Shown here: positions 23,505 to 59,864 of the stretch, in pieces | How positions within the stretch are numbered: the stretch's first letter is position 1 | How the letters are laid out: every line of letters starts with the position of its first letter | DNA from: an uncultured Flavobacteriales bacterium | GTDB taxonomy: Bacteria > Bacteroidota > Bacteroidia > Flavobacteriales > Schleiferiaceae | Assembly (NCBI GenBank): GCA_943787925.1 | Contig: CALSOH010000003.1 | Location: forward strand, 166,431 to 230,430 | Length of the DNA stretch: 64,000 bases | Direction of reading: 5' to 3' | Notes under the pieces: model-generated | Told to the model about the DNA's origin: nothing | Seen by the model: the letters and a program-made list of their open reading frames with translations, nothing else | Databases searched by the model: none | Program-made: the position numbers and the translations under genes

Positions 23505-23553
23505 GCTAGAGAGCTAGAGAGCTAGAGGGCTGGGAAGCTAGAGGGCTAGGAGG
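23505..23553 (+). repeat. 8-bp tandem array (GCTAGAGR) x6, the linker motif of the CTAG repeat family
   Basis: gctagaga gctagaga gctagagg gctgggaa gctagagg gctaggag. The last unit contains the stop codon of the minus-strand four-helix-bundle gene. Confidence 0.9.
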
Positions 23554-23959
23554 AAGCAGGGCTTTTCATGTCTTCATGCTTCTTGACCGAATGGTGCTTC
23601 CTTTTTTCAGATGTACTGGTTTTGCTAAGTAAAGCGTTAAGGGAGATTTTGAGCTTTTTGGCTTCTTCTATCAATGCGGGAGTGTGGAATACACCTGGCT
23701 GGAGTTTTTCCAAAATGTACAGGAGACTCATGACTTCATCTAGAGACCCTCTGCTTATTCGGAGAAAATAGGCAAACTCCTTATCCCGGCCTCTCCCGGA
23801 GCCTTCGGCAATATTCAGGTGGATGGAAAGGGTCGCCCGCAAAAGTTGATTCTTGAGGTAAAACTCACGGCTAAAAAAGGAATGGTAGCTGAGTTCATGG
23901 ACTTTCAAAAAGAAGTTTTGGCTCGAATGCCAGACGCGCAAGGAGGTGTAGTCAATCAT
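23546..23959 (-). CDS. four-helix-bundle protein (23S rRNA intervening-sequence protein / Avd-like family)
   Basis: MIDYTSLRVWHSSQNF, LRATLSIHLNIAEGSGR, RISRGSLDEV, characteristic of the family. GC is lower than in the neighbouring genes. Start taken at the internal Met. Confidence 0.8.
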   Translation of the reverse strand: MIDYTSLRVWHSSQNFFLKVHELSYHSFFSREFYLKNQLLRATLSIHLNIAEGSGRGRDKEFAYFLRISRGSLDEVMSLLYILEKLQPGVFHTPALIEEAKKLKISLNALLSKTSTSEKRKHHSVKKHEDMKSPASS

Positions 23960-24045
23960 GCCTACAAGTACGTACACCTTCTAAATGCAATCGGGAATAA
24001 ACGAAACAAAGTGTTTTAAATGGTTGGAATATGAAGCTCCAGCTC

Positions 24046-24220
24046 CAGGGCGAAGCCCGAGCCCTCTAGCCCTCTGGCTACAGCGCGTAGCGCGTGCTCT
24101 CTAGCCCTCTGGCTACAGCGCGTAGCGCGTGCTCTCTAGCCCTCTGGCTACAGCGCGTAGCGCGTGCCCTCTAGCCCTCTAGCTACAGCGCGTAGCGCGT
24201 GCTCTCTAGCCCTCTACCCT
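24046..24220 (-). repeat. CTAG-rich hairpin repeat array, 5 x 35 bp, overlapping the CPBP gene stop codon
   Basis: CAGGGCGAAGCCCGAGCCCTCTAGCCCTCTGGCTA followed by four near-identical CAGCGCGTAGCGCGTGCTCTCTAGCCCTCTGGCTA units. Confidence 0.92.
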
Positions 24221-51242: not shown

Positions 51243-51389
51243 GGTTGGCAAAGATATAATATCCTACTAAAATGGTAGGAATTAAATGGCGAGGCATTTC
51301 TACTGGCCTTTCTCCGAGTGTCAGCTGCCCATTATCGAACGGAGTGGGAGGACTTGTTTGGCCCTTATAGCCCCCGTACCTTCGGATCT

Positions 51390-52904
51390 ATGAAGCGACT
51401 TCCCTTTACCAAATCGGACCTCTGGATTGCCTTGGGTTTTCTCCTGTGCTACCTGGCCATTTTTGATGCCAAATTGGACCTCGGCGGCGACAATGCGGGC
51501 TACTACATTTTGGGACAGTCGCTGCACAGCGGTCAGGGCTACACGGACATTCACCTACCTGGGGCGCCAGCGGCCAAGCATTTCCCTCCAGGCTATCCTG
51601 CGGTTTTGGCGGTTTTCATGACTTTTTCGGACAGTTTTGAATTCCTAAAGTGGATGAATGGACTGCTCTTTTTGGGCGCCCTGCTCATGCTGCAACGCCT
51701 CTTTGTCCGAATGACCCAAAACCCACTCCTCGCATGGACCGCCTTGGGCCTCACCCTATTGAATGCGCATCTTTTGCGTTCGTCCACCATTTTGATGTCC
51801 GAAATCCCCTTCCTCTTCTTCTCCGTCGCCACCCTTTCGTGCCTCGTCAAATGGAAGGATTCCGAAACTCCCTTTTGGAAGTCCCCGTGGTTCTGGGCCA
51901 TGCTCGTGCTGAGTTCCGCCTCCTACCACATTCGAACAGCGGGCCTTGCCCTCATCGCCGGCATCGGCCTCTACCTCCTCTTTGAAAAGAAATGGACCGC
52001 CGCGGTCGGCTACGGGGTGGGCTTTATCGGCCTCGCGCTGCCCTGGTTCTTGCGCGGCAAAGCCCTGGGCGGCAACCCCTACCTCCAGCAGCTCATCCAA
52101 GTCAACCCCTACCGCCCCGAAGAAGGCGTACTCACCGCCAGCGGCTGGCTGGACCGCATCCAAACCAACGGATGGCGCTACCTCACCCAAGAAATCCCCA
52201 ACGGCCTATTTCCCAAGTTGGACGTGGTGTACTCGCTGGACGAACCCACCGGATTCTTCCTCTACGGCAGCCTATTGGTGATTTTGGTCGTCTTTGGCAC
52301 CTTCAAAATGCCCAAACTCCGCATGATGTGGGCCGGCTACCTCGCCGCTTCCGCCGCCATCTTCCTGCTCTGGCCCGAAGTCTGGTTTGGCGTGCGCTTC
52401 ATGCAGCCCCTCATCCCATTCCTGCTCCTGGCCGCCACGGTGGGCGCATGGGAAGCCCTCAAATGGGCGCAAAACCGATTCAAGCTGCCCTCCTGGGTGG
52501 CGTCCCCCTATATGTTGATGGCGGCAGGTTTGATTCAACTTTCGGCCGTCACGAAGCTTCGCGCCGATAGCCAAGACCCCGTGGGTTCCCAATACGCGAA
52601 CTATTTTAATATGGGTCGCTACGCGGGCCAAAACCTACCCGCCGACGCCGTCATTGCCACCTACAAACCGGCCCTCTTTTACCTCTATGCGCAACGCCCC
52701 TGTGTTCGATTCCCATCTCTCGAAGACCACGACGCCTTCATCGCCAAACTCAAGGAGCAAGGCGTGACCCACGTGGTCGTCGACCAACTAGGCTATTCGG
52801 CCATTGGCCGATACGTGGTGCCCGCTATTCAGAAATACCCCGAACGCTTCCCCCTCATTCTGCAGTTGCCGAATCCGGATACGTATTTGCTGCAGTTGAA
52901 ATAG
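51390..52904 (+). CDS. membrane glycosyltransferase (GT39/ArnT-like)
   Basis: About 12 TM segments. N-terminal GGDNAGYYILGQSL ... FPPGYP loop is typical of PMT/ArnT-like enzymes. Start set at MKRLPF. Confidence 0.6.
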   Translation: MKRLPFTKSDLWIALGFLLCYLAIFDAKLDLGGDNAGYYILGQSLHSGQGYTDIHLPGAPAAKHFPPGYPAVLAVFMTFSDSFEFLKWMNGLLFLGALLMLQRLFVRMTQNPLLAWTALGLTLLNAHLLRSSTILMSEIPFLFFSVATLSCLVKWKDSETPFWKSPWFWAMLVLSSASYHIRTAGLALIAGIGLYLLFEKKWTAAVGYGVGFIGLALPWFLRGKALGGNPYLQQLIQVNPYRPEEGVLTASGWLDRIQTNGWRYLTQEIPNGLFPKLDVVYSLDEPTGFFLYGSLLVILVVFGTFKMPKLRMMWAGYLAASAAIFLLWPEVWFGVRFMQPLIPFLLLAATVGAWEALKWAQNRFKLPSWVASPYMLMAAGLIQLSAVTKLRADSQDPVGSQYANYFNMGRYAGQNLPADAVIATYKPALFYLYAQRPCVRFPSLEDHDAFIAKLKEQGVTHVVVDQLGYSAIGRYVVPAIQKYPERFPLILQLPNPDTYLLQLK

Positions 52905-52978
52905 CTAGGTAGCTAGAAAGCACGCGCTTCGCGCTGTAGCTAGAGAGCACGCGCTTCGCGCTGTAGCCTTTTGGCTTA
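52902..52978 (+). repeat. CTAG-rich hairpin repeat array (2 units), starting at the GT39 stop codon
   Basis: TAGCTAGGTAGCTAGAAAGCACGCGCTTCGCGCTGTAGCTAGAGAGCACGCGCTTCGCGCTGTAGCC. Confidence 0.9.
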
Positions 52979-53052
52979 AACGTTTATTCTCTTTTACCCT
53001 AAAAATGTGGTGTGGACCTTCGCCGCGCGCCCGGACTTTCGATTACTTCGCC

Positions 53053-53124
53053 AAGCTCAAGCCCTCAAGCCCTCAAGCCCTCAAGCCCTCAAGCCCTCAA
53101 GCCCTCAAGCCCTCAAGCCCTCAT
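53053..53124 (-). repeat. 8-bp tandem array, about 8-9 copies (GCCCTCAA on plus = GCTTGAGG on minus)
   Basis: Seven perfect GCCCTCAA units (53061-53116) plus degenerate flanking units. Lies just downstream of the M43 protease gene in that gene's sense. Confidence 0.92.
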
Positions 53125-53150
53125 AGCTCTCTAGCGCGTCAAAGGCGCAC

Positions 53151-55217
53151 CTAGCCCTTCACCACCCACCGCAAAGTCTTCACCTCACTGGGGCTGGCTA
53201 CCCAGCGAACGAGGTAGAGCCCTGCGGGTAGAGCGGGGAGTTGGAGTTGGCGTTGGGTGACGGGGTGTGAGAGTACCGTCCGGCCCAACGCATCCAAGAC
53301 GTAGACTTGACCATTCGTGCTGGGGAGGCTGAGGGTGCTGCCCCCGGCGCTCGGGTTGGGCGCCAGGATAAGTTCTTGCGAAGAAAATTCTTCTTCGCTC
53401 ACCGTGGTGCTGAAGGAGACGTCGTCCAAGTACACGTTGTTGCCGCCGCCACTGATGAACTCAAATTTGATCATCACCGAGGAGGCATTGTTCATCCCCG
53501 TGAAGGGAACGGTGGTTTCTTGCCAATCCGCTGCACTCGGGATATAGAGGGAGGAGGGATAGTAGGTGCTCGTGCCCAGTTGGAAGGCGGGGATTAGGCG
53601 CTGAAGCGCCCAGGTTTGGCCGCAGTCCGTGCTCGTGAAGATTTTTAGTTGGTCGTTGTCGGACGAGGTTTTGCGGGCAAAGGCATGCGAGAAACGCAGT
53701 TGCTTGGCGGTCATATTGCTCACGGAGATGGGGCCTGCGATGAGGGCATCGCCCCCCCCGGTGCCGGCCACGTTGAAGTTGTCCAACACGTAGGAGTGGG
53801 TGCCGGACTTGGCGGCAGCACTCGTGCGCACCCATTTGATGTTGTCGCCGTTGTTCTCGACCACCCAATTGCCGTTGGGCAATGCATCTTCCATGGTCGC
53901 CGAAAAGAAGGGGCTGTAGGTGGTTCCTCCTGCGGGCCGAACCGTAATCAGCTCGCTGTACTGCTTCATGCTGTTGCCGGCCGCGTTCTGGATTTCCAGT
54001 TTAACATCATAGACCCCGGGGGCATTGAAGGTGAGCAGGGGGTTCGCAATGATAATGTGTTGCTGGTTGCCGTTGTTTTGGTCCGCGATGGTGTAATGGA
54101 AGCTGGTGAGCGTTTGGTAGGCGGACAAATCCGTGAACTGCACCTGCTCGCCGGTGCAGAGGAGGGTTCGGTCCACCGTGAAATCCGCGACGGGGGCGCA
54201 GGTGACGGGATTGCCATCCACGCCGGTGAAGGCCAAATTGCCCGACGTGCACAAGTTGCCGCGCAAGGTCAAACTATTGAGTACGGATTTGGCACGTGAC
54301 TTTTGGTTCTGCGTGAACGTATTCATGCAGTTGTCGTCGCTGTAGTCCATGTAGTTCTCGACCATGTCGGGAAGGTCCGGGTTATCGTTGCTACAGGTGT
54401 TCTGCGTGCTGTTGTTGCATCCGTTGGACGACGAGGCAACGGGCGGGGTATCGTAGCAGTTATCGCCTTGGCTGCAACCGCCCTGGAAGGTGTGGTAGAG
54501 GTTGAGGTAGTGCCCGACTTCGTGGGTGAGCGTTCGGTGTCGGGTGCCCGCTGACGTGCCAATGCTGCCCAAGTTGTCGTGCCGAATCACAATCCCATCC
54601 TGGGTGAGCGGGATGCCATTGTAGGGGAAGGCCGAATAGCCCAAAGTGATGGATCCCGGGCTTGTCCCTGACAGGTTAATCTGCCGAACGACCCAAATGT
54701 TTAAGTACTTCGTGTTGTCCCAACCAATGAGGGATTTTACGTTGTTATTGGCGGCCAGACTCAAATTGGTCTGCGTCCGGGTCACCCCATTGGTGCATCG
54801 GCCATTGGGGTCTTTTTTAGCGATCCGAAACTCCACTTCCATATCCGCCGCCACAGGTTTAAAAACGGCACGCAATAAACCCGTGTCGGGATTCATGCGG
54901 CGCATATCCTCGTTGAGGATGTCGATGGCGTCTTGCAATTGGGCCTCCGAGATATTGTCGCTCTGATCGTACCACATGACATGAAAAACGACCGGGATGA
55001 TGTGCACGACCGATTCCGCGCCGGAAGCGTCCTGGGTCATTTGCGCTTCCATGATGGCCTCCGTCTCGGCCAAAAGGGCGGCGCGTCGCGGATTATTTTG
55101 CATCTCCCACGCAAGCTGTTCATCCGCGCCACAACGCTGTATGGTTTGGGCGTGAAGCCCTGAAAAACCTAGTATGAAAGCGGAAAGAACAGGGAAGATG
55201 ACAGGAAAACGAAGCAT
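53151..55217 (-). CDS. M43 (pappalysin/cytophagalysin-like) zinc metalloprotease with PKD domain and T9SS sorting domain
   Basis: Signal peptide, HEVGHYLNLYHTF zinc site, PKD-like module, C-terminal LYLVRWVASPSEVKTLRWVVKG. Confidence 0.85.
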   Translation of the reverse strand: MLRFPVIFPVLSAFILGFSGLHAQTIQRCGADEQLAWEMQNNPRRAALLAETEAIMEAQMTQDASGAESVVHIIPVVFHVMWYDQSDNISEAQLQDAIDILNEDMRRMNPDTGLLRAVFKPVAADMEVEFRIAKKDPNGRCTNGVTRTQTNLSLAANNNVKSLIGWDNTKYLNIWVVRQINLSGTSPGSITLGYSAFPYNGIPLTQDGIVIRHDNLGSIGTSAGTRHRTLTHEVGHYLNLYHTFQGGCSQGDNCYDTPPVASSSNGCNNSTQNTCSNDNPDLPDMVENYMDYSDDNCMNTFTQNQKSRAKSVLNSLTLRGNLCTSGNLAFTGVDGNPVTCAPVADFTVDRTLLCTGEQVQFTDLSAYQTLTSFHYTIADQNNGNQQHIIIANPLLTFNAPGVYDVKLEIQNAAGNSMKQYSELITVRPAGGTTYSPFFSATMEDALPNGNWVVENNGDNIKWVRTSAAAKSGTHSYVLDNFNVAGTGGGDALIAGPISVSNMTAKQLRFSHAFARKTSSDNDQLKIFTSTDCGQTWALQRLIPAFQLGTSTYYPSSLYIPSAADWQETTVPFTGMNNASSVMIKFEFISGGGNNVYLDDVSFSTTVSEEEFSSQELILAPNPSAGGSTLSLPSTNGQVYVLDALGRTVLSHPVTQRQLQLPALPAGLYLVRWVASPSEVKTLRWVVKG

Positions 55218-59814: not shown

Positions 59815-59859
59815 GCTAGAGGGCTGGAGGGCTCGCGCTTCGCGCTGTAGCTAGAGGGT
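59815..59859 (+). repeat. single CTAG-rich hairpin repeat unit downstream of the MarR gene
   Basis: GCTAGAGGGCTGGAGGGCTCGCGCTTCGCGCTGTAGCTAGAGGGT. Confidence 0.85.
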
Positions 59860-59864
59860 CCCGA

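Follow-up and report, generated by a model that had tools for sequence, protein, structure and literature searches.

A hairpin unit with a co-varying stem pair in modular intergenic elements of uncultured marine Schleiferiaceae

We analysed a 64,000-nt stretch of DNA (hereafter the window; positions 166,431–230,430 of contig CALSOH010000003.1, assembly GCA_943787925.1) from an uncultured Flavobacteriales bacterium of the family Schleiferiaceae, whose 1.84-Mb genome (G000) is assembled in 4 contigs and is 99% complete. The window contains several copies of a short intergenic hairpin unit, the inner stem pair of which co-varies among copies and related genomes. Two of these units belong to a composite repeat element situated between the gene for a glycosyltransferase of the GT39/PMT family and a convergent Peptidase_M43 gene (53151–55217, minus strand; PF05572, E 1.1e-22); the repeat arm begins at the base directly after the stop codon of the former, and the locus is organised as follows:

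52902–52904, plus strand: TAG stop codon of the 528-aa GT39/PMT-family glycosyltransferase open reading frame (ORF; 51318–52904; Pfam PF02366 PMT, E 4.4e-9)
52905–52965, plus strand: left arm of the composite element, with CTAG linkers of 7–8 nt (CTAGGTAG, CTAGAAA, CTAGAGA) and two 27-nt hairpin units
52920–52937, plus strand: hairpin module 1, GCACGCGCTTCGCGCTGT, with stem GCGC/GCGC (variable pair C-G), loop TTC and outer A..T
52947–52964, plus strand: hairpin module 2, of the same sequence as module 1; terminal unit
52966–53055, plus strand: conserved core of about 90 nt (GCCTTTTGGCTTAAACGTTTATTCTCTTTTACCC...GTGGACCTTCGCCGCGCGCCCGGACTTTCG...GCCAAG), with 24–25 copies in G000
53056–53135, minus strand: right arm, about 10 copies of CTCAAGCC, or (GGCTTGAG)n on the minus strand (Tandem Repeats Finder: period 8, 9.9 copies)
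53134–53148, minus strand: degenerate inverted hairpin module GCGCGTCAAAGGCGC, with a 4-bp GCGC/GCGC stem and a 7-nt loop

The hairpin unit is 18–21 nt long, of the form GC[W]CG[N]GC-TNC-GC[N']CTG[W], and within an arm the units are direct repeats, arranged head to tail with a period of 27 or 35 and separated by 8-nt GCTAGAGR linkers; for the left arm at 52905–52965, Tandem Repeats Finder gave a period of 27, 2.2 copies and a 96% match. An earlier sequence-only reading of the window had aligned the unit following the GT39 gene with one that follows a katG-side ORF, and proposed that two stem pairs had undergone compensatory double substitutions under selection on RNA or single-stranded DNA (ssDNA) structure. 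Both sequences occur exactly as quoted there (AGCACGCGCTTCGCGCTGTAG at 52919–52939 and 52946–52966; GGCTCGGGCTTCGCCCTGAGG at 14378–14398), and they differ as described: the inner stem changes from GGGC/GCCC to GCGC/GCGC and positions 3/18 change from T..A to A..T.

Units were collected using patterns in which the four tested positions and the loop were all set to N, and this gave 301 units from five Schleiferiaceae genomes of one genus (G000, G001, G006, G020, and G046). G046 (71 units) served as a hold-out, examined after the prediction had been made, and the other four genomes form a set of 230 units; a redundancy-reduced set contains 150 distinct units. The pattern search found 60 units at 33 loci in G000, and only one to three weak matches, with two mismatches each, in G005 and G023, so that the family is confined to a few species of the same genus of uncultured marine flavobacteria. 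When arrays were collected by their linkers, imposing no hairpin condition, all inserts within them were hairpin modules. A census of perfect hairpins (at least 5 bp, 3-nt loop) was uninformative for this family, whose stem is of 4 bp, although it brought a further repeat to light. In the fragmented metagenome-assembled genomes (MAGs) G001, G020, and G046, many cores and hairpin units lie within about 200 bases of contig ends, and the repeats are seemingly one of the chief reasons why assemblies of this group break. A different intergenic palindrome, AGCGCT-ACC-AGCGCT, has 19 intergenic copies in G000 (contigs C1–C4) and none in the window when one mismatch is allowed.

At the inner position the two sides change together, through three pair types and far more than linkage would account for. 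In G000 the pair is C-G in 43 units, G-C in 14, T-A in two and non-Watson-Crick (C.C) in one, and the C/G table yields a Fisher value of 1.5e-12, uncorrected for relatedness. The four-genome set contains 131 C-G, 72 G-C, 22 T-A, and 5 non-Watson-Crick units, and the hold-out contains 34, 26, 6, and 5, respectively, with 66 of its 71 units paired, as predicted. Taken together, the five genomes contain 165 C-G, 98 G-C, 28 T-A, and 10 non-Watson-Crick units, i.e., 291 of 301 (96.7%) are paired, and besides C-G and G-C there is a third pair type, T-A (GTGC...GCAC). The double substitution at this pair is thus real and stronger than had been claimed. Independent variation of the two inner positions, which a larger collection of copies would be expected to bring out if the claim were wrong, was not seen: the inner columns share 1.17 bits of mutual information (88% of the maximum), and the runner-up column pair, made of adjacent columns, shares 0.25. 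Among the 150 distinct units the inner pair is formed in 97.3%; shuffled controls gave 46.6 ± 3.8%, and sliding the partner position never gave more than 63%.

The loop-centre column, lying physically between the two inner positions, shares 0.12–0.13 bits with either of them, and all three pair states are seen on each left-flank, loop and right-flank haplotype; at least two pair states occur on 15 of 132 complete 26-nt backgrounds. Shuffling of the 3′ base within each genome and within strata defined by the four other variable columns left a mean of 181 paired units and a maximum of 198, whereas 225 of 230 were observed (p<2e-4). It is very unlikely that the inner double substitution is a by-product of subfamily descent. 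Orthologous arrays downstream of the GT39 gene have the inner pairs CG,CG in G000 (window 52905–52965), TA,TA,CG in G001 (C174) and C.A,GC,CG in G020 (C112). The C.A unit of G020 is otherwise of the same type as its neighbours and looks like an in-place change by way of a one-step intermediate, with some uncertainty as to orthology at the level of single units. Nearest-neighbour energies indicate that mismatched hybrid stems lose about 3 kcal/mol, and the other positions of the 4-bp stem hardly vary, which is partly owed to how the units were collected.

The outer pair, which the sequence-only reading took for a second compensatory change, did not withstand the same scrutiny: about one third of the units are unpaired at positions 3/18, and there is no association in G000 (TA 18, AT 13, TT 12, AA 10, TG 6, AG 1; Fisher p=0.28). 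Over the five genomes, 204 of 301 units (68%) are Watson-Crick at these positions, with T..T (63) about as frequent as T..A (62). Pairing after free shuffling was expected at 49.3% and observed at 66.7%; the two columns share 0.16 bits of mutual information, which does not exceed the values for neighbouring columns that are unrelated, and stratified permutations gave p between 0.007 and 0.16. A Mantel-Haenszel test over genome-by-subfamily strata, with subfamilies defined by the inner type, gave an odds ratio of 2.5 (p=0.025), and in the G-C subfamily the outer pair is formed in only 55% of the units. Most of the association is linkage to the inner-pair subfamily, and the outer helix is constrained at most weakly. 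Any test of this pair is blurred, since A3 can also pair with the constant T in an alternative register. The further outer pair put forward with it (C with position 19) is formed in only 60 of the 150 distinct units.

The loop is TNC in 259 of the 301 units (86%), almost always as TTC, TGC, or TAC; it is kept, although not as TTC or TAC only, and its middle base is the most variable column after the co-varying pair. The T after the stem, described as a retained bulge, is indeed constant. On the opposite strand the 259 TNC units read GCGNAGC (GCGAAGC, GCGCAGC, GCGTAGC, GCGGAGC), the GC-GNA-GC sequence, and non-homologous hairpin modules of the same arms keep C-GAA-G (GCGCC-GAA-GGCGC in G000 and GAGCGC-GAA-GCGCTC in G023). 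Of all 64 GCNNNGC sequences, an extraordinarily stable mini-hairpin is formed only by those with GNA loops, with melting temperatures of 76, 73, 71, and 70°C for N = A, G, C, and T; standard nearest-neighbour thermodynamic models miss this stability, and the RNA counterparts are considerably less stable, r(GCGAAAGC) melting at 39°C (PMC13037366). As in the d(GCGNAGC) mini-hairpin (Hirao, Yoshizawa; PMC13037366), the units keep the G and the A of the loop and leave the middle base free; unlike the known hairpins, ours are read as sequence only, and 14% of them break the GNA rule. The natural examples given in that review, of 2026, are phage replication origins and promoters, with no dispersed chromosomal repeat family among them (PMC13037366). 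ViennaRNA DNA energies of the units range from −2.7 to −4.2 kcal/mol, as given by nearest-neighbour models that miss mini-hairpin stability; for the 4-bp stem and triloop of module 1, nearest-neighbour energies are −5.2 kcal/mol as RNA and −3.8 as DNA. This motif is suggestive, and no proof, of a DNA hairpin that would form on the strand opposite to gene sense.

The composite element has the order hairpin/8-mer array, core of about 90 nt, inverted 8-mer array and, sometimes, inverted hairpin module. Its right arm corresponds, in inverted orientation, to the array of GCTAGAGR linkers, with an equal layout in other copies, nearly all of which have the terminal hairpin unit adjoining the core. 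Next to the GT39 gene, the GCGCGTCAAAGGCGC module adjoins the stop codon of the Peptidase_M43 gene, and other copies of the element have GCGCC-GAA-GGCGC in its place. CTAG at an 8-nt period puts TAG in every frame of both strands, which explains that arrays can start at, or even supply, stop codons. Among the G000 cores, 18 of 24 lie between convergent ORFs, versus 17% of all intergenic gaps (from crude ORF calls). A model built from sequence alone assigns 13–46 copies of the core to each of 8 genomes, out of 34 in the genus; with an exact pattern, and one genome scanned for each species, matches came only from Schleiferiaceae MAGs and from one labelled Cryomorphaceae. The G023 copies of this core have other inverted 8-mers as flanks (GGTTAGCT and GTTTGTTGG types), and a GC-rich TTC/GAA hairpin marks each outer end (L002, L008–L017), indicating that the arm sequence is lineage-specific and the layout conserved. 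The core is non-coding, because its copies differ by small indels, and a small ORF was ruled out, as the candidate ATG is not conserved and copies show 1-nt indels. A structured small RNA was likewise ruled out: the RNAalifold consensus of 22 core copies (−2.8 kcal/mol) has no covariation and no conserved structure. We could not find a description of the composite element in the literature, nor any specific description of repeat families in Schleiferiaceae or Flavobacteria.

Other units of the window occur in arrays lacking a core, in a single copy and in a cassette that carries a gene:

14361–14472, plus strand: coreless solo array after the katG-side ORF, with three G-C-type units (14379–14396, 14414–14431, 14441–14458)
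17243–17450, minus strand: six-unit array mixing C-G and G-C units, with the sole mismatched hybrid of G000
23546–23959, minus strand: gene of the 23S_rRNA_IVP family (four-helix bundle; Pfam PF05635, E 8.7e-22)
24042–24215, minus strand: five-unit array, with four C-G units (loop TAC) and one G-C unit; hairpin arm of the gene-carrying cassette
59815–59860, plus strand: single unit GCTCGCGCTTCGCGCTGT, with inner C-G and outer T..T, i.e., with the outer pair broken

The hybrid of the six-unit array, at 17255–17272, combines GCGC...GCCC in a C.C mismatch. A canonical terminator, with hairpin and T run, is found at about 14509–14545, 3′ of the katG-side array, which is thus probably part of a 3′ untranslated region and not itself a terminator, since it lies between the stop codon and the terminator. 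Farther downstream, at 14577–14640, a (AACCAACGAACG)n array followed by CAGCGCGAAGCGCT resembles the G023-type right arm (inverted GTTGGTT-type 8-mers and a GAA-loop hairpin), and G000 may therefore have a second type of arm as well.

Genes of the 23S_rRNA_IVP family are classically found in the context of a stem excised by RNase III. In the window, the gene lies between the five-unit hairpin arm (24042–24215) and an inverted 8-mer arm (23505–23549), so that in the cassette at 23505–24215 the PF05635 gene takes the place held elsewhere by the 90-nt core. The cassette shares this gene-between-inverted-arms layout with 23S rRNA intervening sequences and other PF05635 cassettes; unlike the former, the cassettes here are not in rRNA genes, and, unlike the latter, the GT39-side element is gene-less and its payload is the non-coding core. 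At the same exbD-side locus of G020 (L076, C60:1-1000) the arms are the same and the IVP gene has the opposite direction, as if it were the expected product of recombination between the inverted arms. G002 (L077, C243) and G004 (L078, C38) have no core, and there inverted 8-mers of the GGTTAGCA/AGGTTGGC type lie on either side of the IVP gene. The gene occurs in 10 of 34 genomes and its presence does not track that of the core, a distribution that led us to rule it out as the mobilising factor.

Core-bearing elements follow the direction of replication, as read from the sign of the local GC skew. Core orientation agrees with the skew sign for 22 of 24 copies in G000 (binomial p=3.6e-5), including all 11 cores on the negative-skew contig C2 and all seven on the positive-skew contig C3, and for 13 of 13 in G006; in G023 it agrees for six of six where the skew is clear, with five others in flat-skew windows. 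ORFs overall are co-oriented with the skew in only 51% of cases in G000. It follows for core-linked arms that the leading strand is templated by the GNA strand, whose sequence is also that of the Okazaki fragments. Structure-prone repeats tend to expand when the hairpin forms in the nascent lagging strand and to be deleted when it forms in the lagging-strand template; by analogy, this asymmetry could explain that hairpin units survive mainly in one arm.

We read the unit as probably a palindromic module of a modular REP/BIME-like family (repetitive extragenic palindromic sequence/bacterial interspersed mosaic element) in which pairing is kept, with ssDNA as the most likely level of the constraint and with the outer pair constrained weakly at most. 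From the joint change of the two inner positions we infer that what is kept would be intra-strand pairing, as hairpin or cruciform, and not the letters themselves. As to the level of action, the GNA rule and the polarity of core-bearing elements relative to replication incline us towards DNA over RNA. Two inverted arms of units and 8-nt linkers flank a payload, which is usually the core of about 90 nt and, once in the window, the IVP gene. Under our reading the hairpin constraint would act on ssDNA during replication or propagation of the element, and complementarity could persist either because non-pairing copies are lost or because the hairpin templates its own correction; the two routes may also combine. 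Such a DNA-level constraint predicts that d(CAGCGCGAAGCGCGTG) should be more stable than its complement. For the inner pair, the earlier proposal of structural selection (RNA or ssDNA) is reasonable; for the outer pair it finds weak backing at most, and non-selective routes fit too. In particular, templated correction of quasi-palindromes also gives complementary double changes, and hence the inner pair does not by itself separate selection from the alternatives.

Several observations count against this reading. No tree can be drawn from 28-nt units, and each derived pair type might have had a single origin followed by cassette spread, in which case the formal evidence amounts to two events. 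Folding on each strand had been proposed as a check, and single units folded no better than their dinucleotide shuffles on both strands (z about 0); neither did the whole 266-nt element (z of +0.33 and −1.25). Because of this the evidence lies in the covariation and not in folding energy, and we dropped thermodynamic stability as an argument. The loop is not GNA in 14% of the units, the commonest exception being AAA on the other strand. In G009 neither of the two examined cores agrees with the skew, which is weak there, and solo arrays follow the upstream gene in eight of 10 cases and replication in seven of 10. No enzyme acting on DNA hairpins was found genus-wide: RAYT/Y1 transposase (PF01797) was absent from 26 of 26 genomes of the genus, with a control that matched 6 of 14 reference genomes, and reverse transcriptase (PF00078) was absent across the genus, also with a working control. 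Lastly, 27 of the 33 G000 loci lie 3′ of a co-oriented ORF, often a few bases past its stop codon (in 28 of the 33 a convergent ORF lies on the far side), and the units preceding the katG-side terminator are probably transcribed.

These last two points would be explained equally well, polarity included, by a role at the RNA level, in which hairpins of 3′ untranslated regions, or a stem formed between the arms, would protect mRNA from 3′ exonucleases, terminate transcription or offer an RNase III site, in the manner of REP elements and 23S rRNA intervening sequences. It is the gene-sense polarity and the position of the katG-side array within a transcript that keep this explanation alive, and we consider it possible, if clearly less probable than a constraint on ssDNA. 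It also agrees with the equal arms that flank the 23S_rRNA_IVP gene, with nearest-neighbour energies of −5.2 to −6.0 kcal/mol for matched stems versus −2.3 for mismatched ones, and with the short T-rich stretch (CCTTTTCGCTT) found after the terminal unit in most copies, although this has only 4 T in 8. Nevertheless, the element has no terminator-like site: a search for Rho-independent terminators (stem of at least 5 pairs and a T run) found none in 52700–53400 on either strand. At the gathering threshold, Rfam matched only three tRNAs in the whole window and nothing on the element, and with E up to 10 only a chance miRNA match on the 8-mer array was retrieved from 52850–53200; a promoter scan of the element found nothing. 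The lack of excess folding stability in unit and element also speaks against a role in RNA, and so does the UNC triloop, which has no known special stability as RNA, whereas its DNA complement does (PMC13037366). Wobble intermediates show no strand preference, with 2 T.G versus 2 C.A among the 301 units, numbers too small for us to use G.U counts for the choice of strand. An RNA role also leaves unexplained that cores are oriented with replication when genes overall are not.

The covariation might instead arise by mutation alone. In quasi-palindrome mutagenesis, with the hairpin formed in ssDNA at replication, one arm is copied from the other by template switching, and single substitutions in the stem would thus be reverted or "compensated" mechanically, without selection. 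That one strand has the motif of a DNA mini-hairpin of unusual stability, that unit number changes fast between close species, showing active replication slippage, and that double changes are found on otherwise identical backgrounds (15 cases) all agree with such a process. Its mechanism comes from general knowledge, however, and the sequence does not separate it from purifying selection; moreover, it still needs the hairpin to form, which makes it a variant of the explanation that we prefer. As a complete account without selection we regard it as rather unlikely.

We give still less credit to the absence of any pairing constraint, with three founder cassettes (GCGC/GCGC, GGGC/GCCC, and GTGC/GCAC) of single origin being copied and swapped as 11-nt blocks. 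The three types are common to all five genomes and hence older than the species splits, the inner positions are only 8 nt apart, and the rare mismatched units resemble recombinants, as does that at 17255–17272, with halves of two types. Yet the loop-centre column, between the inner positions, is nearly independent of them (0.12 vs. 1.17 bits), which implies that recombination or recurrent mutation operates within the block and nevertheless leaves complementarity intact. If the founding events numbered only two, each still led to a perfect Watson-Crick pair; the other stem columns are almost invariant, in part from the way of collecting units; and the orthologous GT39 locus, with its C.A intermediate, speaks for change in place. 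Finally, a double-stranded, operator-like site for a dimeric DNA-binding protein, its symmetry being that of two half-sites, is very improbable: the near invariance of the stem letters beyond the variable pair, and a core conserved in sequence with no fold, which suggests protein binding somewhere in the element, would suit it, but independently read half-sites need not co-vary and would accept mixed C/G sites, yet only 10 of 301 units are asymmetric, and three symmetric variants would need three proteins or else an uncontacted base, which would not co-vary.

Compared with known repeats, the family is a REP/BIME-like variant that lacks both the tag and the RAYT transposase. It shares with the REPs and BIMEs of Enterobacteria and Pseudomonas, BIME-1/RIP and REPINs included, short GC-rich imperfect palindromes in tens of copies per genome (60 units at 33 loci in G000), their extragenic placement, mainly downstream of genes and with neighbouring ORFs that converge or run in the same direction (Di Nocera et al. 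2013, PMC3733652), and the restriction to a few related species. In BIME-1/RIP a conserved protein-binding motif lies between two inverted REPs, and here too inverted palindromes surround a conserved centre. REPs are defined by a GTAG or CGTC tag at the end of the palindrome (PMC3733652), whereas our family has no such conserved tag: GTAG follows the stem in about one third of the units (GTAG 81, GTGG 58, GAAG 36, and GAGG 19 in the 230-unit set) and CGTC in none. It also differs from REPs in having no RAYT/Y1 transposase (the IS200/IS605-type enzyme that accompanies GTAG REPs) anywhere in the genus, a stem of only 4 bp with a 3-nt loop, and core-bearing elements that follow the direction of replication, and from BIMEs in that arms are inverted around the core but units within an arm are head to tail, with 8-nt CTAG linkers and no alternation.

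Intergenic tandem arrays of 7–8 nt units, at many loci and with a lineage-specific sequence, also occur as STRR heptamers in cyanobacteria, as GGGAATC-type repeats in Xanthomonas and Nostoc (PMC4692102) and as TAACTGA in Beggiatoaceae (PMC4679880). The arrays described here instead form inverted pairs around a payload, with interspersed hairpin modules and with CTAG stops in all frames. Miniature inverted-repeat transposable elements are marked by terminal inverted repeats, a target-site duplication and a related autonomous IS; inverted arms are present here too, but they are oligomer arrays of variable length that reach the flanking stop codons, and the PF01797 and PF00078 searches brought up no transposase partner. 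A CRISPR array does not fit, as the units abut through CTAG linkers of 7–15 nt that are themselves repeats, and there are no unique spacers. BOX of Streptococcus pneumoniae and MIRU of mycobacteria are modular intergenic repeats with a variable number of internal modules and fixed end modules; they have no similarity in sequence or modules to our family and are not known to be built from inverted oligomer arrays, and we know of no report of their polarity relative to replication.

A broader and more doubtful proposal is that these elements represent a new kind of transposase-less, replication-polar "hairpin-arm cassette" in Bacteroidota, in which ssDNA hairpins at the fork would drive array expansion and the propagation or inversion of the payload, the core being an orientation-dependent signal. 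The arms would be inverted lineage-specific 8-mers with GCGNAGC mini-hairpins, the payload either the 90-nt core or a 23S_rRNA_IVP gene, and the G-rich strand of the core would be placed on the leading strand, in the manner of Chi- or KOPS-type signals.

Covariation in the stems of REP-type repeats is already known as evidence and opens no new field by itself. Our results correct the record in that one co-varying pair is solid and the second is not, and they offer the three-state inner pair as a clean marker for unit turnover between strains. The GNA loop rule and the replication-linked orientation of the core point to a DNA-level hairpin, which is unusual for a chromosomal family with no RAYT. 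What is worth following in these bacteria is the GNA mini-hairpin signature, the orientation linked to replication and the architecture held in common with the IVP-gene cassettes.

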